Assembly: GCA_022566355.1 (NCBI GenBank)
Contig: JADFJB010000006.1
Coordinates: 67 to 64,066, forward strand
Direction of reading: 5' to 3'
Origin: Candidatus Zhuqueibacterota bacterium
Lineage (GTDB): Bacteria > Zhuqueibacterota > JdFR-76 > DREG01
DNA length: 64,000 nt
Notes under the pieces: model-generated
The model's database searches: none
What the model was told of the DNA's origin: nothing
The model's input: only the letters and a program-made list of their open reading frames with translations
Shown here: positions 9,451 to 62,483 of the stretch, one piece after another
Numbering within the stretch: position 1 is the stretch's first letter
Layout of the letters: each line of letters opens with the position of its first letter
Program-made: the position numbers and the translations under genes

Positions 9451-10280
9451 TTAACTTTCTCCTCATGAATGACTTTTCAAAATAACAATTAGGCCTGATC
9501 TATATCATAGCGCAGCTCAAGGCTGTAAACAAAAAATATACTTTAACAAATCAGATGTTCATTTTTAGACAGGATAAACAGGATTATCAGGATAAAAATC
9601 CAGTATATCTTGTTAATCCTGTCAAAAAAAGAAAAACAGCTATTAAAAAGTTTGTTCAAAAAACAAAGTTTTACACTGTAATAGCAAACCTTATCACTGT
9701 CATCCCGGAAGGATCTATTTTACAACTAATTTATACAACCAATTTTACTATTCCCTTTTTATGGAAATAGATCCAGTTGCGACGGGATGACATTAGGAAA
9801 CTTTAAGCTTAAAAGCTGATTCATGAATTCCAAGTTTGTAATATACTTCACAACATTGTGGTTTACAAGACAAGGTTAAGGTTGATGCTAAGGATAAAAT
9901 CAAGGTTAAGGTTGAGAATAAGTTTAGTTAGTGACTGAACAAAAACACCCAAGCTGTCATTCCCGCATGCTTTCAGGCAGTTAGATAACTACCAAAATGT
10001 CACCCCAGAATGCTTTTATCGGGGGTCTATTTGCATTAGTTAAGTACTCGCTTATGAACATGCAGAGGTGAAAAACCGGTTCTCGGACACCCTGGCTTTT
10101 ATCGCGGATCTTTAACCACTTATAAAAATATTCGTGCTTGACTAAAATGAAATTAGATATTACTTTTAAGAAAATTAGCATTAAATAAACTATCTAAATA
10201 AATGATAATAAATATGGATAACTAGCCTTTCATTTTTTATCTGAACTCGAAGAAAAGCAACATAAATTTCATTAATACAA

Positions 10281-52666: not shown

Positions 52667-53845
52667 ATGGGTATGAAAATCGAACGAAATTTAAAGATGG
52701 GCATGGTCGGTGGCGGACCGGATGCGTTCATTGGTGAGGTTCATCGCAAGGCCGCTCGTATCGATGGCGGGATTGAACTTGTTGCAGGGACTTTCAGCCG
52801 GGATTTCGAAAAGTCCAAACAAACCGGCAACGAACTTTTCCTAGATAGCGCCAGAGTCTATAGCAGTTTCACTGAAATGATTAATCAAGAAAGAACACTG
52901 CCCGAAGGAGAACGAATTGATTTTGTTTCCATTGTTACACCCAATAATTGGCACTTCCCCATTGCCAAAGATTTCTTAAAAGCAGGGTTCCATGTGGTTT
53001 GTGACAAACCTATGACCATCAACCTGGATGAAGCTAAGCAGCTTAAAAAAATAGTTGGTGAAACCATCAAACTTTTTGCATTGACTCACAATTACACCGG
53101 CTACCCGATGGTTAAACTGGCCCGGGATATGGTTCGACAAGACGATTTAGGAAATATCCGCAAAGTTGTTGTGCAATATCCCCAGGGATGGCTTTCTACT
53201 CCCCTGGAAAAAACCGGGCAAAAACAAGCCGAGTGGCGCACCGATCCGAAGCAAAGCGGCGCAGGTTGCATGGGTGATATTGGCACTCATTGCGAAAACC
53301 TGGCAGAATATATCACGGGATTGAAAATCACTGAAATCTGCGCGGATATAACTACGTTCGTCCCTGGCCGTAAAGTTGATGACGATGGTAATTGTCTTCT
53401 TCGGTTTGATAATGGCGCTAAGGGTATTTTACATGCCAGCCAAATTTCAGTTGGAGAGGAAAATAATCTCGCGATTTGGGTTTACGGTGAAAAGAAAAGC
53501 CTGGTGTGGCACCAGGAGTATCCCAATGATCTTACTATAAAATCACAAGAGGCACCGGTGCAGGTATGGCGCCGGGGTAATAGTTATGTCGCTGAAAAAA
53601 GTCCTGCTGCTGCTCGTGCGACTCGACTGCCACCCGGACATCCGGAAGCCTTTATCGAAGCATTTGCAAATATCTACTGTAATTTTGCCGACACGTTAAG
53701 GGCTCGTTTAGCAAACAGAAGCCCTGATGATCTTGCGCTTGATTTTCCAACAGTTGAAGACGGCCTTCGTGGAATGGCATATTTAGATTCAGTATTTACT
53801 AGCGCTAATAACAATCAAAAATGGACTCCCTTGAAATCAAGTTGA
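52667..53845 (+). CDS. Gfo/Idh/MocA-family oxidoreductase
   Basis: Rossmann N-terminus [20 protein letters not shown] (EKP-like) motif. 392 aa. Confidence 0.8.
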
Positions 53846-53866
53846 TTATGTTTTTAGGAGAAGTTT

Positions 53867-54859
53867 ATGAATAGACCCGTTACCCTGTTTACCGGCCAAT
53901 GGGCCGACTTAGCTTTAGAAGAACTCGCCCGAAAGGCGGCTATCTGGGATTATGATGGATTAGAGTTGGCTTGTTGGGGCGATCATTTGGATGTTGAAAA
54001 AGCAGCCACGATCCCGGATTACTATGAACATCAATTGGAAATTTTGAAAAGAAATAATTTGAATGTTTACTCAATCAGCAATCACCTTGCCGGACAACTT
54101 GTATGCGATTTGAATAATGATTCGCGTTCCGATGCATTCGCTCCCGCTGATTGTGCCGGAGATCCTGATAAAAAGCGACAGTGGGCAGTGGAAGCCATGA
54201 AGAATACTGCCAGAGCCGCGAAGAACATGGGTCTTTCTGTGGTTAATGGTTTTACCGGTTCTTCGATTTGGCATTTGTTGTATAGTTTTCCCCCGGTTAA
54301 CGAAAAGACGATCGAGGAAGGATTTTCTTATTTCGCCGAAATGTGGAATCCTATTCTGGATGTATTCGATGAATGCGGTGTAAAATTTGCTCTGGAAGTT
54401 CATCCCACGGAAATAGCTTTTGATATTATCACAGCACGAAAAGCGCTTGAAGTTATCGATAATCGGGAAGCATTCGGATTTAATTTCGATCCAAGCCACC
54501 TTCATTGGCAGATGGTCGATCCGGTCAATTTTCTCAAAGAATTTCCGGATCGTATTTATCATGTTCATATGAAAGATGCCGCACTACAATTGAACGGAAA
54601 ATCAGGGATACTTGCTTCTCATTTAAAATTTGGTCATCCTGATCGCGGTTGGGATTTTCGCTCATTGGGCCGGGGAGGTGTTGATTTTGAGGAGATCATT
54701 CGAACCCTGAATCAAATCGGTTACAATGGACCGCTTTCTGTAGAATGGGAAGACAGCGGTATGGACCGTGAAGACGGCGCCAGAGAAGCTTGTGAATTTG
54801 TAAAGAAACTCGATTTTAAGCCGTCCCAGGTTGCTTTTGATGGAGCGTTCGATCAATGA
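53867..54859 (+). CDS. Sugar-phosphate isomerase/epimerase (xylose-isomerase-like TIM barrel)
   Basis: ALEVHPTE ... NFDPSHL ... HVHMKDA metal-ligand pattern of AP-endonuclease-2 / xylose-isomerase-like TIM barrels. 330 aa. Confidence 0.8.
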   Translation: MNRPVTLFTGQWADLALEELARKAAIWDYDGLELACWGDHLDVEKAATIPDYYEHQLEILKRNNLNVYSISNHLAGQLVCDLNNDSRSDAFAPADCAGDPDKKRQWAVEAMKNTARAAKNMGLSVVNGFTGSSIWHLLYSFPPVNEKTIEEGFSYFAEMWNPILDVFDECGVKFALEVHPTEIAFDIITARKALEVIDNREAFGFNFDPSHLHWQMVDPVNFLKEFPDRIYHVHMKDAALQLNGKSGILASHLKFGHPDRGWDFRSLGRGGVDFEEIIRTLNQIGYNGPLSVEWEDSGMDREDGAREACEFVKKLDFKPSQVAFDGAFDQ

Positions 54860-54866
54860 AGATAAA

Positions 54867-54904
54867 TACAAAGGCACAAAGGCACAAAGGCACAAAGGCA
54901 CAAA
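54867..54904 (+). repeat. Tandem 9-bp repeat (CAAAGGCAC)x4
   Basis: Direct read: acaaaggcacaaaggcacaaaggcacaaaggcacaaat, between the stop of 53867..54859 and the start of the DUF1080 gene. Confidence 0.9.
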
Positions 54905-54943
54905 TTATTTTAGGAATAATAACAAAAATATAAAGGTATCATA

Positions 54944-55651
54944 ATGAAAGTTACCATTTCATTGTTTTTATTTATTTTAGTAATTGGCTGCTCTTCACAG
55001 GAAGCACAGAATGCCGGTAATGAAGATGAACAAACCGAATGGATTGTATTATTCGATGGCAAAACCTTCGATGGCTGGCGTGGTTTTAAAAAGGATGTTG
55101 TTCCTGAGGGTTGGGTCATTACCGAAAATGCCGAGCTCTATTTTATGGGTAAAGGAAAAGGATACATCATGACGGATGGGCAGTATGACAATTTCGAATT
55201 GGAATTGGAATGGAAAATTTCCGAGGGAGGGAATAGCGGTATATTCTTTCGTGTCAGCGAAGATGACAATGCAGTCTACCGCACTGCTCCTGAAATGCAA
55301 GTGTTGGATAATGCCAAACACAAAGATGGTAAAATTCCAGAGGAATCCGCCGGCTCAAATTATGCCCTTCACGCACCTTTTGCGGATGTAACCAATGAAG
55401 TGGGACAATACAATAAGATCCGGATCATCGCAAGAGAAAATCATATCGAGCACTGGATGAATGGACAAAAACTTTTGGAGTATGAGATCGACAGTCCGGC
55501 ATGGAAGGAATTGGTGGCAAACAGCAAATTCGGTAAAATGCCAAAGTACGGAACCTACAGTAAAGGGCACATCGCCTTACAAGACCATGGTGATAAGGTA
55601 TGGTATAGAAATATCCGGATTCGAACTTTACCATCAACATCAACCCATTAA
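54944..55651 (+). CDS. DUF1080 (3-keto-disaccharide hydrolase-like, GH16-like fold) lipoprotein
   Basis: Lipobox LVIGCSS. WIVLFDGKTFDGWRGF ... NSGIFFR ... HIALQDHGDKVWYRNIRIR are hallmark DUF1080 motifs. Confidence 0.8.
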   Translation: MKVTISLFLFILVIGCSSQEAQNAGNEDEQTEWIVLFDGKTFDGWRGFKKDVVPEGWVITENAELYFMGKGKGYIMTDGQYDNFELELEWKISEGGNSGIFFRVSEDDNAVYRTAPEMQVLDNAKHKDGKIPEESAGSNYALHAPFADVTNEVGQYNKIRIIARENHIEHWMNGQKLLEYEIDSPAWKELVANSKFGKMPKYGTYSKGHIALQDHGDKVWYRNIRIRTLPSTSTH

Positions 55652-55673
55652 CCGCGATAATTGGAGTATCACT

Positions 55674-57047
55674 ATGAAAATTCAGAAAAAAAATATTTCC
55701 CGGCGCGACTTTATTACTCGCGCCGCAATATCCACTGCTGTTTTTTCCATCGTCCCTCGACATGTACTTGGCGGTCCTGGTTTTATTGCGCCCAGTGACA
55801 AACTCAATATTGCATGTGTCGGCGCCTGGGGCAAGGGTCGATCGGATATCATGGGGGTCAGCACAGAAAACATATTCGCTATATGCGATATCGATCTTGC
55901 TCATTTACAAAGATTTAAAAATTCCGTGCAAAAAGAGGAAGGCGGCACGGAGCTTTGGGATAAAGCGCTAAAATACCAGGACTTCCGCAAGATGTTGGAC
56001 GAAAACAAAGACAGTATCGACGCGGTTACCGTTACTGTTCCGGATCATTCGCACGCGATTATTGCACTATCAGCGATCCAATTGGGCAAACATGTCTTCG
56101 TACAAAAACCGCTCACCCACACAATTTACGAGGCCCGTAAGCTTACCGAAGCTGCTCGTGAAGCTAAAGTCGTCACGCAGATGGGCAACCAGGGTCACGC
56201 TGGCGAGGGCGGCCGATTGATCAACGAATGGATCTGGGATGGCGCTATCGGACCGGTGCGCGAGGTGCATTGCTGGACCAACCGACCGATCTGGCCGCAG
56301 GGCATCAGAAGCCCCAAAGAAGTCATTTCAAAGCCGCCCACCATAAATTGGGATGTCTGGATCGGACCCGCGCCATACCGGGCTTACCACCCGGCTTATG
56401 CGCCGTTCCGCTGGCGCGGCTGGTGCGACTTCGGCGTTGGCGCCCTCGGTGATATGGCGGCTCATATCATGGATCACCCGTATTGGGCCTTGAAATTAGG
56501 TTATCCGACCAGCGTAATCGCAGAGTCTTCGGAATTCAATGGCGAGACCTACCCGGTGTCCTGTAAAGTAAAATACCAATTTCCGGCAAGAGGAGATATG
56601 CCGCCGGTCGAGTTAACCTGGCATGATGGCGGCCGGATGCCGGATCGCCCGGATGATTTAGAGCCGGGCAGAAAAATGGGTGACGGCGATGGCGGCGTCC
56701 TGATGATCGGCGATAAAGGCAAACTGATGCACGGCACCTACGGCAGAAATCCAAGGATTATCCCGGAAACAAAGATGCGTGAATATACACGACCGCCTAA
56801 AACCATCCCGCGTTCGCCGGGTATCCACCAGGAATGGGTTGAAGCTTGCAAAGGCGGCCCGCCCACAACGTCACATTTTGATTACTCCGGTCCGCTTACC
56901 GAGACCATGTTATTAGGAAACCTGGCCATTCGCATGGCACATAAAAACACCGCGCTGGAATGGGACGGAGAGAAGATGGAAGTGACTAATATGCCGGAAG
57001 CCAACGAGTTTCTAACTAAGCGGTATCGTTATGGGTGGAAGGTTTGA
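55674..57047 (+). CDS. Gfo/Idh/MocA-family oxidoreductase with twin-arginine signal
   Basis: Start at MKIQKKNISRRDFITRAAISTAVFS (Tat motif SRRDFI). Rossmann NIACVGAWGKG. EKP-like VQKPLTH. The ORF-track start at 55461 is an upstream extension overlapping the DUF1080 gene. Confidence 0.8.
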   Translation: MKIQKKNISRRDFITRAAISTAVFSIVPRHVLGGPGFIAPSDKLNIACVGAWGKGRSDIMGVSTENIFAICDIDLAHLQRFKNSVQKEEGGTELWDKALKYQDFRKMLDENKDSIDAVTVTVPDHSHAIIALSAIQLGKHVFVQKPLTHTIYEARKLTEAAREAKVVTQMGNQGHAGEGGRLINEWIWDGAIGPVREVHCWTNRPIWPQGIRSPKEVISKPPTINWDVWIGPAPYRAYHPAYAPFRWRGWCDFGVGALGDMAAHIMDHPYWALKLGYPTSVIAESSEFNGETYPVSCKVKYQFPARGDMPPVELTWHDGGRMPDRPDDLEPGRKMGDGDGGVLMIGDKGKLMHGTYGRNPRIIPETKMREYTRPPKTIPRSPGIHQEWVEACKGGPPTTSHFDYSGPLTETMLLGNLAIRMAHKNTALEWDGEKMEVTNMPEANEFLTKRYRYGWKV

Positions 57048-57051
57048 AAGA

Positions 57052-57096
57052 AGTGCCTAAAGTTCATAAAGTGCCTAAAGTGCCTAAAGTTGAAGA
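57052..57096 (+). repeat. Tandem 9-bp repeat (AGTGCCTAA-like) x5
   Basis: Direct read: agtgcctaa agttcataa agtgcctaa agtgcctaa agttgaaga, starting 5 nt after the stop at 57047. Confidence 0.85.
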
Positions 57097-57283
57097 AGCG
57101 AAATAAAAAATTTTAAAAAATAACAGAATGTCATTTCGACAAAGTGAAGCGAGGAGAAATCTTATCGCCTAATAATTCATTTTCCGAATGGCTCTAAAGA
57201 TTTCTCGCATTAAACTCTTCAAATTGTCAATAAGGCAAATTGTCAAAAGTATAACAAAATAACTTTAACCTTTAGGGGGAGTT

Positions 57284-57643
57284 ATGGACAATAAGGAATT
57301 TGCAAAGCAGCTTGAAAATCGAACAAGAACTTTCGCGATTCAAATTATTCAATTATCAACTAAATTACCAAGGACACCAGAAGCAAATGTAATTAGAAAG
57401 CAAATAACTAAAGCGGGAACTTCAATTGGTGCGAATTATCGGGAAGCTAATCGATCAAGAAGTAAAAATGACTTTATAAGTAAAATTAGAATATGCGAAA
57501 GTGAGTCAAGCGAAACCCAATATTGGCTTCAGATTATTGGGCAAATGTCCTGGATTTCAAAAGAAATAATAAATCCTTTGTATGAAGAATGCAGCCAATT
57601 GCTCGCACTATTTTCCTCCATTGTCCAAAAAAGTAAATTATAG
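57284..57643 (+). CDS. Four-helix-bundle protein (23S rRNA intervening-sequence protein family)
   Basis: FAIQIIQLSTKLPRTPEANVIRKQITKAGTSIGANYREANRSRSKNDFISKIRICESESSETQYWLQI matches the family. GGGGGAG RBS. 119 aa. Confidence 0.8.
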   Translation: MDNKEFAKQLENRTRTFAIQIIQLSTKLPRTPEANVIRKQITKAGTSIGANYREANRSRSKNDFISKIRICESESSETQYWLQIIGQMSWISKEIINPLYEECSQLLALFSSIVQKSKL

Positions 57644-57684
57644 GTTGTAGTTTATAAATAATTAAATAATAGCATCTTTTTAAT

Positions 57685-57706
57685 TTTAGGCACTTTAGGT
57701 ACTTTT
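57685..57706 (-). repeat. Inverted copy of the GTGCCTAAA-type 9-mer repeat
   Basis: Direct read ttaggcactttaggtacttttt is the reverse complement of aaaagtacctaaagtgcctaa. Together with 57052..57096 it brackets the four-helix-bundle gene in inverted orientation. Confidence 0.7.
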
Positions 57707-57722
57707 TTTATTATTGGATGAC

Positions 57723-57834
57723 TTTTAGTCTAGCGAGCTATCGTCTGTAACTCTTCTCTGATAACTTTTCGGAGCGTACTTTCCAACTTACATTCGTGTT
57801 GTTGAATTACTGGCATAATGCATCATTGATCAAG
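57723..57834 (-). repeat. Decayed duplicate of the brnA 3' end (~110 nt, ~88% identical to 58553..58666)
   Basis: ttttagtctagcgagctatcgtctgtaactcttctctgataacttttcggagcgtactttccaacttacattcgtgttgttgaattactggcataatgcatcattgatcaagg aligns base-for-base with the last ~35 codons plus stop of brnA. The copy carries stop codons (…LINDALCQ*). Confidence 0.8.
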
Positions 57835-57931: not shown

Positions 57932-58198
57932 CTATGCGCCCGCCAAACTTTTAGAACAACATGAGACGAGTGCAATCACAATTACCCCATTGTGATTTTC
58001 AAATTGGAGTGGAATAGTGTGAAAAAAATCTTTATCCGTAGTTAGAAAAATTGCTGAATTTTTTTGTGCTATATCAAAAAGAACAGAATCATCAACTCCT
58101 TTATATTCAATGGAATGTCCATCTATCGTTTCATGGCCAGTTGAATTTATATACGAAATACTTTTTCTAGGAAAATTCTCATCAAGAAAAAATATCAT
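57932..58198 (-). CDS. DUF5615 (PIN-like) protein
   Basis: MIFFLDENFPRKSISYINSTGHET...VDDSVLFDIAQKNSAIFLTTDKDFFH fits the DUF5615 consensus. The ATGA overlap with the upstream DUF433 reading frame is typical of this pair. Confidence 0.7.
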   Translation of the reverse strand: MIFFLDENFPRKSISYINSTGHETIDGHSIEYKGVDDSVLFDIAQKNSAIFLTTDKDFFHTIPLQFENHNGVIVIALVSCCSKSLAGA

Positions 58199-58441
58199 GA
58201 TACCTTGAGATTGTAAGGTAGACTTTCAAAACTGGAGAGGTAACTTCCAAATGAGAGCGCTGCTTGAATATCCTCTTTTGATATATTTGGATAGTCTTCC
58301 AAAATTTCTTGAAACGTATCTCCCGGATGCAAGAGCGCCAAGTATGTTACTTACAAGGACTCTTGTCCCTTTGATAACCGGCTTTCCATGACAAACATTT
58401 GGATTTATAGAAATTCTTTCAATCATAACCATTTCCTGCAT
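58195..58441 (-). pseudogene. DUF433 protein with +1 frameshift
   Basis: N-terminus MQEMVMIERISINPNVCHGKPVIKGTRVLVSNILGALASG is canonical DUF433. The conserved continuation DTFQEILEDYPNISKEDIQAALSF... is found in the +1 frame after an extra G in ...gcatccgggagatacg... Confidence 0.6.
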
Positions 58442-58560
58442 TCATTTATAGGTAAAAAAAACATTTTATAATTAAGCGCCAAAACGCAATAAGATCAAAA
58501 TTATTTTTTTGTGTGTTTTAAAAATGAATAGAATCTTCACTCGAAATGTTAATTTTTAGT

Positions 58561-58824
58561 CTAACGCGCTATTGTCTGTAACTCTTCTCTGATAACTTTC
58601 CGCAGCGTACTTTCCAACTTACCTTCGTGTTGTTGAATATACTGGCTTAATGCATCATTAATCAGGGTTTGGTAATTTCCACCACCCATTTTATGAACTT
58701 CATTGCGAAACCATTTAATTACATTGTCATCCAAACGAATGGTTATGCGTGTCTTACCAGGTGGCGATTTTACAACTGCACCTTGCTTAGCGCTACTAAA
58801 ATTATATTCTTCTTTTGCTTTCAT
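58561..58824 (-). CDS. brnA: BrnA-family antitoxin
   Basis: 87 aa; ...RITIRLDDNVIKWFRNEVHKMGGGNYQTLINDALSQYI... matches the BrnA (ribbon-helix-helix type) consensus. Confidence 0.7.
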   Translation of the reverse strand: MKAKEEYNFSSAKQGAVVKSPPGKTRITIRLDDNVIKWFRNEVHKMGGGNYQTLINDALSQYIQQHEGKLESTLRKVIREELQTIAR

Positions 58825-61090: not shown

Positions 61091-61402
61091 GTGACGTATA
61101 TATTGATCACTGTTAAATTTAGAAGAATCTATTTGGAGAAATGTTATCGAATTAAAAGTGAAGCTCATAAAAAATGGGGCCCGATTGTCGGAGATAAGTA
61201 TATTAAGCAATTAAATTTAATCTATGCTACTGAATCAGTAAAGGATTTATATTTAATACCTCAATTACGATTTCATCCTTTAAAAGGCGACTTGGAAGGT
61301 CATCACTCTATTACTCTTACATATCGAGCACGTTTAATAGTTAAATGTGACGGTGATACTATCATTTTGATAGAAAAGGTAAGTACAAAACATTATGAGT
61401 AA
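61091..61402 (+). CDS. higB: HigB-like (RelE/ParE superfamily) toxin
   Basis: C-terminal LIPQLRFHPLKGDLEGHHSITLTYRARLIVKCDGDTIILIEKVSTKHYE matches the HigB plasmid-maintenance-killer motif (LKGDRxGxxSIRxNDQWRIxF...DYH). 8-nt overlap with the downstream antitoxin gene. Confidence 0.7.
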   Translation: MTYILITVKFRRIYLEKCYRIKSEAHKKWGPIVGDKYIKQLNLIYATESVKDLYLIPQLRFHPLKGDLEGHHSITLTYRARLIVKCDGDTIILIEKVSTKHYE

Positions 61403-62483
61403 TAATGATTTTTATACAGACAGTCCCATTCATCCGGGCGAGCATTTGAAAGATACTCTTGCATCTTTTGGTCTCTCACAAACTGAATTATCTAATCGTA
61501 TTGGAAAGTCCAGAAAGGTCATCAATGAAATTATTTCCGGCAAAGCTCCTATTGCACCCAGCACTGCGATTCTTTTAGAACGTGTTCTAAATGTGCCGGC
61601 TCATGTATGGAATAATCTACAGCGTAATTTTGACCTGAATATTGCATATCTATCTGAGCAAGTCAAAATAAAAAAGGAAAGTAAATTATTAAGCTACTTT
61701 CCTATTCGTCAAATGATCAAATTTGGGTGGATTCCGGAGTGTATGTCTAATGAAGAAAAAGTAAAAAATTTACTTTCATTTTTTTGTGTATCCAGCCTCA
61801 TGAATATTGAAAACTCTCTATCTGTTCAATTTCGTCGATCGATAAGAGATAATATTTCAAAAGAAGCTTTATACGCATGGATCCGGCAAGGTGAATATGA
61901 AGTCAGAAAAATTGAAACTTCAACCTACGACAAAATTGGTTTACAAAAATGTCTATCAGAATTGAGAAATCTTACAAATGTTTCACCGGAACTGTTTCAA
62001 CCTGAAGTTAAGAGAATTTGTGCTGGAGTTGGTGTTGCTGTTGTGTTTGTTCCAGAACTTCCAAAAACATACATCAATGGCGCCACATTTTGGTTTGATG
62101 GTTTTAAAAAATCAGCACTTTTATTAAGCCTTCGGTTTAAGACAAATGACAATCTTTGGTTTAGTTTTTTTCATGAATTAGGCCACATCATACTACATCG
62201 CAAAAAGGAAAACTTCCTGGATATCTCTGATTTAAAACTCACTGGTGAAGATCGAATCAAAGAAAAAGAAGCCGACACTTTTGCTGCTAATATTTTAATT
62301 CCGGATGCAAAATGGAACGATTTCAAATATTCGGTTCCGTACACAAGACAGAAGATTTTACAATTTTCGCAAGACATTGCAATAGCCCCTGGGATTGTTG
62401 TCGGACGTCTTCAAAAGGAAGAATTATTGCCTTATAGTCACCTTAATGGACTGAAAGAAAAATATCAATGGGTTCTGGATTGA
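61395..62483 (+). CDS. higA: HigA-type HTH antitoxin fused to C-terminal ImmA/IrrE-family (COG2856) zinc metallopeptidase domain
   Basis: N-terminus IHPGEHLKDTLASFGLSQTELSNRIGKSRKVINEIISGKAPIAPSTAILLERVLNVPAHVWNNLQRNFDL is canonical HigA. C-terminal region carries HELGHIILH (HExxH) plus downstream E/D, typical of ImmA/IrrE. 362 aa. Confidence 0.7.
   Translation: MSNNDFYTDSPIHPGEHLKDTLASFGLSQTELSNRIGKSRKVINEIISGKAPIAPSTAILLERVLNVPAHVWNNLQRNFDLNIAYLSEQVKIKKESKLLSYFPIRQMIKFGWIPECMSNEEKVKNLLSFFCVSSLMNIENSLSVQFRRSIRDNISKEALYAWIRQGEYEVRKIETSTYDKIGLQKCLSELRNLTNVSPELFQPEVKRICAGVGVAVVFVPELPKTYINGATFWFDGFKKSALLLSLRFKTNDNLWFSFFHELGHIILHRKKENFLDISDLKLTGEDRIKEKEADTFAANILIPDAKWNDFKYSVPYTRQKILQFSQDIAIAPGIVVGRLQKEELLPYSHLNGLKEKYQWVLD

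Follow-up and report, generated by a model that had tools for sequence, protein, structure and literature searches.

Intervening sequences (IVSs) of 23S ribosomal RNA (rRNA) that carry an open reading frame (ORF) for an S23p protein have been described in Coxiella burnetii and Leptospira (Warrier et al. 2016, PMC4990558; Ralph & McClelland 1993, cited there). The element of C. burnetii has a length of 428-444 nt, is located in helix 45 and holds its ORF in a loop that is closed by a 28-bp stem of paired terminal repeats; tandem heptamers of the sequence GACAGAT, found in three copies and in some strains in two, directly precede the ORF, and the element is excised from the rRNA by RNase III (PMC4990558). 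Older proposals cited in the same work regard IVSs either as remnants of transposition or as mobile elements whose ORF would aid mobility. Here we describe a cassette of related architecture outside of an rRNA gene, which consists of a four-helix-bundle (4HB) protein gene bracketed by two inverted arrays of short tandem repeats and which resides in a 64,000-nucleotide stretch of contig JADFJB010000006.1 from a Candidatus Zhuqueibacterota bacterium (GCA_022566355.1), referred to as the window throughout. To our knowledge, the S23p/IVS protein family, whose members rank with the more frequent small 'hypothetical' genes of Bacteroidota, cyanobacteria, Planctomycetota and Desulfobacterota, has been without a known function since the early 1990s. 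Small genes and intergenic repeats also come together in the REP/RAYT systems (REPtron, REPIN), where the repetitive extragenic palindromes (REPs) are single imperfect palindromes and the REP-associated tyrosine transposase (RAYT) is of the HUH/Y1 type. Two further systems are of relevance: the cyanobacterial short tandemly repeated repetitive (STRR) elements, which are 7-bp repeats capable of folding into hairpins between operon genes with a function that is unexplained (PMC2670836), and Avd, an accessory protein from diversity-generating retroelements and a homologous basic pentameric four-helix bundle which binds nucleic acid and reverse transcriptase (PMC10053308).

The cassette is delimited by a sense-type array B on its left and an antisense-type array C on its right side (Table 1). 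As detected by Tandem Repeats Finder (TRF), array B has a period of 9 at 57051-57090 (4.4 copies, 87% matches, consensus AAGTGCCTA) and reads as AAGTGCCTA AAGTTCATA AAGTGCCTA AAGTGCCTA AAGTTGAAG, with AAGTTCATA being a diverged unit and AAGTTGAAG a partial fifth one that extends to about 57096. It begins 4 nt past the stop of the oxidoreductase gene that is located upstream. Array C is found 41 bases after the stop codon of the 4HB gene and its units are directly followed by a T7 run. Both arrays together constitute an inverted repeat of 27 nt with 89% complementarity, whose arms are separated by 584 nt, and the distance spanned from B to C is 655 bp. The tandem 9-mers, their inverted partial copy and the enclosure of a 23S-IVS-type 4HB gene in a cassette of about 650 bp had been noted in a first-pass annotation of the window and are all borne out by these measurements. 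Its description of the units as a GGCAC core with an A/T triplet holds for a third array, termed A, located further upstream, but not for B and C, where GGCAC is combined with TTTA. Arrays B and C are not the product of chance, since the 18-mer AAGTGCCTAAAGTGCCTA, which comprises two units, is matched with up to three mismatches at four positions of the window, all in B or C, compared to 0.03 expected, and since the motif TAAAGT-N3-5-TAAAGT is found three times, always in array B, with an expectation of 0.01. The cassette is the sole one in the window, which contains no further CTAAAGT arrays. A CRISPR-like array (clustered regularly interspaced short palindromic repeats) was ruled out, as the units are 8-10 nt long and not separated by spacers, and so were coding repeats, as A, B and C are located outside of long ORFs (in one frame the units of B would read KVPKV).

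The protein encoded between the two arrays can on the basis of its sequence be assigned with confidence to the family PF05635/TIGR02436, with a match of 2.6e-21 to PF05635 (76.3 bits compared to a cut-off of 33.8), which is its only match in Pfam, and of 8.3e-26 to TIGR02436 (90.3 bits, cut-off 24). It is with similar confidence a homologue of the pentameric four-helix bundle in the PDB entry 2RLD, which contains 5 chains (E = 5.9e-18 in a search with the single sequence and 7.5e-25 with a profile), and shows a marginal match to 2GSC (E = 0.25). The protein is basic, with an isoelectric point (pI) of 9.6, and has more than 5000 homologues, the best of which, other than itself, are at about 70% identity and come from several phyla. 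The assignment of B and C as the ends of a 4HB cassette of the IVS type is secure.

Table 1. Coordinates of the arrays, the cassette and the preceding genes, given as positions of the window.
Feature	Position	Strand	Description
Gfo/Idh/MocA oxidoreductase gene	52667-53845	+	First of four same-strand sugar-oxidation genes
Xylose-isomerase-like TIM-barrel protein gene (AP_endonuc_2)	53867-54859	+	Second sugar-oxidation gene
Array A	54868-54904	+	Perfect tandem of the 8-mer ACAAAGGC / AAAGGCAC; TRF period 8, 4.6 copies, 100% matches
3-keto-disaccharide hydrolase gene	54944-55651	+	Third sugar-oxidation gene
Tat-signal Gfo/Idh/MocA oxidoreductase gene	55674-57047	+	Assigned by Pfam; last operon gene, directly 5' of the cassette
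Array B, left cassette end	57051-57096	+	Sense-type tandem 9-mers, consensus AAGTGCCTA
Cassette leader	57097-57283	+	From the sequence and comparison with inner cores of relatives and gene-less hairpins
4HB gene	57284-57643	+	119 aa; PF05635 23S_rRNA_IVP / TIGR02436
Array C, right cassette end	57685-57705	+	Antisense-type TTTAGGCAC TTTAGGTAC TTT; TRF 2.3 copies

The leader that separates array B from the 4HB gene places the array at a distance of about 190 nt from the start codon compared to a median of 16 nt in relatives. It starts with a degraded remnant of a conserved inner core (GTTGAAGAAGCG...TTTTAAAAAATAACAGAAT), which is recognized by comparison with the cassettes L011, L019, L055 and L067 and with gene-less hairpins, and continues with a nested inverted-repeat insert at about 57130-57208 (GTCATTTCGAC...GCGAGGAGAAATCT / AGATTTCTCGC, also read as GTCATTTCGACAAAGTGAAGCGAGGAGAAATCT ... 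AGATTTCTCGC). The insert folds into a hairpin of its own in the minimum free energy (MFE) structure, is unique in the window and looks like a small insertion that has displaced array B from the start codon. Towards its 3' end, the leader contains a remnant of an antisense-type repeat (AACTTTAACCTTTAGG, 57261-57276) and a Shine-Dalgarno-like GGGGGAG (57275-57281). Inverted-repeat elements that recall this insert (GTCATCCCGG...CCGGGATGAC / GTCATTCCCGC) were observed in a long non-coding stretch at 9700-9990 of the window.

The design of a gene between inverted arrays recurs in at least eight bacterial phyla. A homologue scan with one genome per species provided 577 confirmed loci, of which the best 80, with 4HB proteins that are 58-70% identical, were analysed. 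These originate from Thermodesulfobacteriota (Desulfobacterales), Planctomycetota (Pirellulales, Sedimentisphaerales, Phycisphaerae and an anammox genus), Bacteroidota (Flavobacteriales, Bacteroidales and Saprospiraceae), Calditrichota, Acidobacteriota, Gemmatimonadota, Auribacterota and a bacterium of the PVC group, to which the host of the window, a member of candidate division KSB1 as judged from the source name of the identical protein, is to be added. In nearly all of them, units of the type AAGTG(N1-2)CTA are located just 5' of the start codon and inverse units just 3' of the stop codon. The sense core TA[AG]AGT is present 1.78 times per locus within the 50 nt upstream of the gene, 0.99 times in the next 50 nt and about 0.02 times further out, which amounts to an approximately 80-fold enrichment just upstream, and the antisense core 1.50 times in the first and 1.23 times in the second 50-nt bin on the downstream side. 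Each side holds two or more cores in 46 of 70 loci, with a median of three per side and arrays that typically contain 3-5 units, the last of which is within 3 nt of the ATG in 13 loci. The units are either 9-mers (AAGTG-N-CTA) or 10-mers (AAGTGA-N-CTA) with one poorly conserved position each, and the most common among them (18%) is AAGTGCCTA. We also observed two loci with additional repeats, a Flavobacteriaceae genome (L052, 2300-3100) where the 4HB gene is surrounded by three tandem copies of a gene-less hairpin and a Pirellulales locus (L051, 2790-3120) where it is broken by a different GC-rich repeated element.

The wide distribution of the arrays bears on the suggestion of the first-pass annotation that they may be iterons bound by a regulator. 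If the regulator was one of the host acting on the sugar operon, or if the arrays were chance microsatellites, one would expect what is in fact found, namely arrays in the intergenic gaps of one operon whose copy number varies as in ordinary microsatellites. However, these arrays are also present on both sides of the 4HB gene where it resides in unrelated operons, including those for opp/dpp transporters, Mg-chelatase, CRISPR, restriction-modification, DISARM/BREX and RND efflux systems, and iterons for a sugar-operon regulator are therefore unsupported. Together with the positional enrichment and the excess of matches over chance in the window, this refutes both versions for arrays B and C and leaves the explanation as a whole with a very small probability, although it may hold for array A on its own. 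As for the gene upstream of the cassette, among its nearest orthologues the one in L123 (71% identical) is directly succeeded by an array and a 4HB gene, whereas the one in L122 (70% identical) carries neither. With regard to the empty sites in relatives that the first-pass annotation had proposed to look for, there is one orthologue with and one without the cassette, but this pair does not provide a clean empty site because the downstream context differs. In the literature on PF05635, TIGR02436, 4HB and S23, flanking arrays were described only in the Coxiella IVS paper, in a search that left much of the subscription literature uncovered, and a search for the repeat strings returned zero papers. 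It appears that 4HB cassettes outside of rRNA genes are an under-described class of which the instance in the window is an ordinary representative.

When the region 57040-57725 is folded as RNA, pairing of B with C is predicted in the MFE as well as in the centroid structure, with a stem of about 29 bp around the entire ORF (z = -4.6 compared to shuffled sequences). Such predicted pairing between the 110-nt flanks on either side of the gene extends over at least 15 bp in 67 of 73 loci, with a mean of 41 bp, compared to about 16 bp in controls where the downstream flank was reverse-complemented and about 13 bp with more distal flanks. The duplex of the sense strand is predicted to be more stable than its antisense counterpart in 46 loci, with the opposite being the case in 25 (Wilcoxon p = 0.004), and contains more G·U pairs (476 vs 399), as would be expected if the sense transcript was under selection, with an effect that is modest. 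A bias is also found in the orientation of the gene, which is the same as that of the upstream neighbour in 61 of 65 loci, of the downstream neighbour in 58 of 66 and of both in 48 of 54 (89%), as well as in 9 out of 10 loci on annotated plasmids. The near-constant sense orientation inside operons points to a constraint at the level of the transcript, as in 23S rRNA intervening sequences. In the window, a sugar-oxidation operon of four genes (52667-57047) has the cassette at its 3' end, and the cassette marks the terminus of this operon because the genes that follow on its 3' side are on the opposite strand. A search with Rfam at the gathering threshold and with ARAGORN over the whole window resulted in zero matches, rRNA included, which places the cassette outside of an rRNA or tRNA context and outside of curated RNA families. 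In a scan for promoters and terminators between 54.7 and 58 kb, the counts did not exceed those of shuffled sequences, with nothing convincing around the cassette, and thus gave no indication of a separate promoter or terminator.

With these properties in mind, we lean, by a modest degree, towards viewing the cassette as a selfish IVS-type module of about 655 bp in an mRNA operon, which carries an S23p/Avd-like 4HB gene as cargo and whose ends pair in the transcript. Lacking a recognizable promoter of its own, such a module would presumably be co-transcribed by read-through from the operon in sense direction. Once transcribed, the sense array (AAGUGCCUA)n and the downstream inverse array are predicted to form a duplex of about 27-29 bp with the ORF in its loop. 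By analogy to the rRNA elements, this duplex would be a substrate of RNase III, whose cleavage would liberate the cassette RNA from the host transcript, a release which would explain why cassettes are tolerated between the genes of operons as well as inside rRNA helices. At the DNA level, the array ends would gain and lose units by slippage, and recombination between arrays would invert or delete the gene module to generate hairpins without a gene as well as solitary arrays, of which array A would be an example.

Gene-less counterparts of the cassette are in fact abundant. A scan for three consecutive CTAAAGTG(N1-2) units identified 31 viral contigs and at least 120 metagenome contigs. At the viral array loci, no 4HB gene of this clade was detected within reach by tblastn, and none was found in the scan of IMG/VR. 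Among the metagenome matches listed, a 4HB gene is near the array at about two loci, and at least 83 arrays that are more than 500 nt away from the contig end contain no such gene within 300 nt. The gene-less loci are either solitary arrays in short gaps or hairpins in which a loop of 10-80 nt connects a sense array to an antisense array behind it. Many of the hairpin loops contain an inner core (…GTTGTGGAGTCGCTTCGCTCCATC-TTTTTATATAAT-GGCAGAATTCCTTAAC…) that is equally found just inside the arrays of the cassettes L011, L019 and L055, and as this core is common to both, the hairpins look like cassettes without their ORF. In one viral genome from IMG/VR (L108 / L097), we observed four hairpins of sense and antisense arrays in separate gaps and two further copies with AAAGGCAC 8-mers in place of the antisense array.

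Three comparisons between loci of relatives bear on how such variants may arise. The loci L152 and L049 have flanks that are 88-96% identical, with L152 containing a gene-less hairpin only and L049 the hairpin and an additional stretch of about 440 nt with the 4HB gene. The direct antisense units CTTTGGGCAC and CTTTAGGCAC delimit this difference, and the loop of the hairpin is inverted between the two. In L021 and L042, whose flanks are about 92% identical, the cassette is found in opposite orientations. In L219 (11980-12160), a site behind an oppC-like gene that is occupied by a full cassette in five other genomes has retained a sense array and, of the 4HB gene, no more than the final 20 codons, and a second site, which holds a cassette in L018, is without one. 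These comparisons indicate that arrays slip, recombine, invert and delete the DNA between them. In the vicinity of the CTAAAGT arrays, we also noticed heptamer-like arrays of other sequence (CAATGAC, TTGACTA), which reside in adjacent or orthologous gaps (L219, 13119-13184; L092, L101, L106 and L121) and which hint at several unrelated families of short tandem repeats that occupy one kind of intergenic niche.

The layout preserved across phyla, the gene-less derivatives and the presence, absence, decay and inversion of the cassette in relatives show that the first-pass annotation was essentially right in viewing the arrays as ends of a small element carrying the 4HB gene. A more specific version, in which B and C would be the terminal inverted repeats of a non-autonomous transposon similar to a miniature inverted-repeat transposable element, with the transposase located elsewhere and the 4HB gene as passive cargo, fares less well. 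Inverted ends, gene-less miniatures that are sometimes found in tandem and the difference in presence and absence between related genomes would all be in line with transposition, and some transposons are known to contain multiple subterminal binding sites in their inverted ends. Conversely, there is no target-site duplication, as the sequences outside of B (…GGTTTGAAAG) and outside of C (TTTTTTTATT…) share no direct repeat, and no transposase is found inside the cassette or within 10 kb. The number and order of units vary between arms and strains, and the one gain or loss that could be resolved has its breakpoints inside directly repeated units, as would result from recombination or slippage and not from transposition. 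The strong sense bias in operons would be unexpected for a cut-and-paste mechanism, and the gene carried as cargo is invariably the same one in all phyla. We thus consider a transposon of this kind to be quite improbable.

Variation on a shorter timescale was found in a set of ten metagenomic contigs that share an identical 4HB protein and the same context. Among these near-identical strains, array B contains three or four units, with GTGCACTA replacing GTGCCTA in some of them, array C reads GGCAC-GGCAC in most strains compared to GGCAC-GGTAC in the window, and the units of array A number two, four or five. Since unit counts or units differ in otherwise near-identical DNA, all three arrays are variable in copy number, and they offer hypervariable markers to separate closely related strains.

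Array A requires separate consideration. It had been described in the first-pass annotation as a tandem of 9-mers in the next gap upstream, but its period is 8 and it is two intergenic gaps away from B, where it separates the AP_endonuc_2 gene from that of the 3-keto-disaccharide hydrolase, with no inverted partner in the window. In the viral contig L108, the 8-mer AAAGGCAC occupies the place of a TTTAGGCAC array that is kept in three sister hairpins, and this substitution is the only evidence that ties array A to the repeats of B and C. From the family of repeats at three sites that had been proposed, the relationship between B and C is therefore retained, whereas A is only loosely related. 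Array A is probably a variant of the antisense-type unit; it is solitary, hypervariable and located outside of the cassette.

Several observations weigh against the view of the cassette as a selfish IVS-type module whose ends pair in the transcript. Cleavage by RNase III was demonstrated for the rRNA elements and is extended to cassettes outside of rRNA by analogy, and at the end of an operon there is no obvious benefit that the host would gain from excision. The asymmetry in G·U pairs is modest and could reflect base composition. The complementarity between the arms of the same locus (0.633) hardly exceeds that between arms from different loci (0.600, p = 0.013, with a median rank of 18 of 42), and 9-nt and 10-nt units are often mixed or different between arms. 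With arms that are barely more complementary than those of unrelated loci, pairing alone does not explain the sequence, and a pure stem would require neither tandem repeats nor a core that is conserved across phyla. Finally, a 4HB gene was not found near any of the viral arrays or most of the metagenome arrays listed, many of which are also devoid of a partner array.

Some of these features would be accounted for if the tandem units were iterons for the protein of the cassette itself, a part of the iteron proposal that is still alive after the exclusion of a sugar-operon regulator. The 4HB pentamer would in this case bind the units as DNA or as single- or double-stranded RNA and thereby autoregulate, protect or propagate the arrays in a way that resembles REP/RAYT systems, in which the gene is bracketed by inverted copies of the very repeat that it recognizes and many further copies without a gene are spread over intergenic regions, a function which is compatible with the selfish IVS-type module and which we regard as a tentative possibility. 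The fixed core with its single variable position in either unit length, its conservation in at least eight phyla despite the moderate identity of the proteins and arms that share no specific complementarity are as expected for protein-binding sites, and the typical number of 3-5 units may be related to the 5 chains of 2RLD. The basic character of the protein and the abundance of gene-less doublets and singlets would also be consistent with it.

Additional support for recognition of the units by the protein might come from distant relatives. We investigated a set of eleven 4HB genes with 31-42% identity, of which ten are located on annotated plasmids and the eleventh on a phage record without annotation. 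Eight of the eleven, all on plasmids, are bracketed by short inverted arrays, which in seven cases are tandem 7-mers, with AATTCAA/TTGAATT in Nostoc, TTTTAGA/TCTAAAA in Gloeocapsa, CAGTGAC/TGGTCAC in Euhalothece, a CAGTGAA-type unit in Chondrinema, GATGAAG in Chlorohelix, GGAAAGN/CTCTCCG in Treponema, GATTTAC with CCCCAAT in Planktothrix and a AATTAGGAATGAGGA pair in Monoglobus. In Bernardetia and Pseudanabaena, arrays flank the gene in direct orientation, and no clear arrays were recognized upon inspection of the phage-record locus. The type of unit tracks the protein clade rather than the phylum of the host, since Bacteroidota hosts contain three types of units with three types of proteins while a single protein clade is associated with one core across at least eight phyla. 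This correspondence and the preservation of the core A-A-G-T...C-T-A suggest that the units may be recognized by the pentamer of the respective cassette. Other observations are less easily reconciled with such binding. The spacing of cores varies within 7-10 nt, a range that would hardly suit phased binding to duplex DNA. Viral contigs bear arrays, yet no 4HB gene of this clade was found in the scan of IMG/VR, the window holds one cassette and no other arrays of this sequence, and the joint inheritance of a gene with its flanks could mimic co-evolution.

On the plasmids, 4HB genes are inserted between co-directional genes such as csx2/cas1, DrmD/PglX, hsdS/hsdR, DUF1156/Swt1-HEPN, helicase/methylase and subunits of RND efflux systems. 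All of these pairs except the RND efflux subunits represent defence operons, with distant 4HB cassettes at the loci L245, L246, L248, L250 and L251 on annotated plasmids. In a figure legend of one publication, '23S rRNA IVP' is listed among CRISPR-associated proteins (PMC10910872). This listing, and the statistical association with CRISPR loci that has been reported for '23S rRNA IVP', may stem from insertion into CRISPR operons or from the tandem arrays themselves.

The neighbourhood of the cassette shows further features. On its 3' side, a toxin-antitoxin-type cluster (57932-58824 and 61091-62483) comprises a PIN-like DUF5615 protein with DUF433, BrnA, a HigB-like toxin and a protein combining a helix-turn-helix with a Peptidase_M78 domain, and in the strain contigs BrnA is accompanied by a BrnT-like ORF. 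A direct repeat of 46 nt with 93% identity is located at 57723-57768 and 58554-58599, where the latter copy is the 3'-terminal part of the gene for the antitoxin BrnA (58561-58824, minus strand). As it leaves a remnant of the 3' end of brnA directly beside array C, this repeat suggests a duplication or rearrangement at the border of the cassette. Tandem repeats of a different kind (period 9/18/36/54) at 1698-2070 of the window encode Gly-X-Y triplets of a collagen-like region.

When compared to known systems, the relationship to Avd is restricted to the protein. A template/variable repeat pair as in diversity-generating retroelements was not detected near the 4HB gene, an RVT domain is absent from the 16 larger neighbouring ORFs scanned (47.7-63.8 kb) and from the called genes of the strain contigs, and inverted tandem arrays have not been reported around avd. 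With REP/RAYT systems, the cassette shares the placement of one small gene between inverted short repeats. Gene-less doublets, corresponding to hairpins, and singlets in intergenic regions are likewise seen for its repeats in metagenomes, and the window adds no further CTAAAGT arrays. Unlike RAYT, its protein is a four-helix bundle of 119 residues without known catalytic motif and not an HUH/Y1 enzyme of the IS200/IS605 type, and its repeats are tandem arrays.

The resemblance to cyanobacterial STRR sequences concerns short tandem repeats in operon gaps, which can form hairpins where inverted arrays adjoin. It extends to the 4HB genes of cyanobacterial plasmids, a handful of which are flanked by heptamer arrays, including CCCCAAT, which we take to be the unit of STRR1 (Mazel et al. 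1990). With units of 8 and 9 nt and a KSB1 host, instead of heptanucleotide arrays scattered between the genes of filamentous cyanobacteria, the window shows a resemblance of class but not membership. No published link between STRR sequences and 4HB genes was found in a literature search that did not include much of the subscription literature. In its broadest form, one might speculate that PF05635 genes and short tandem arrays constitute one widespread and undescribed class of selfish elements, in which a pentamer would recognize its own units of 7-10 nt and which would spread and decay to leave gene-less hairpins and solitary arrays behind, with 23S rRNA IVSs and cyanobacterial STRR-type repeats as its two faces. 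We judge this generalization to be still more doubtful than binding of the arrays by the pentamer. The finding that family members are almost always bracketed by inverted clade-specific arrays and inserted in sense into operons turns them into a definable genetic element with cis sites and offers a concrete hypothesis for a possible origin of STRR-like intergenic repeats.

The closest correspondence is found with the IVSs of 23S rRNA. Both contain a gene of the family PF05635, which is placed in sense inside a stem of terminal inverted repeats of about 28 bp in the IVS and a predicted length of about 29 bp in the cassette, both carry short tandem repeats directly 5' of the ORF whose copy number varies between strains, both have a size in the range of about 430-650 nt, and both are viewed as selfish elements. 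In contrast to IVSs, which are found in helices 9, 25 or 45 of 23S rRNA, the cassette is located behind a Gfo/Idh/MocA gene where an operon ends, its repeats are 9-mers instead of heptamers and both of its ends are built from tandem units. With respect to the defining features of its architecture, the cassette corresponds to an IVS in all but its location.

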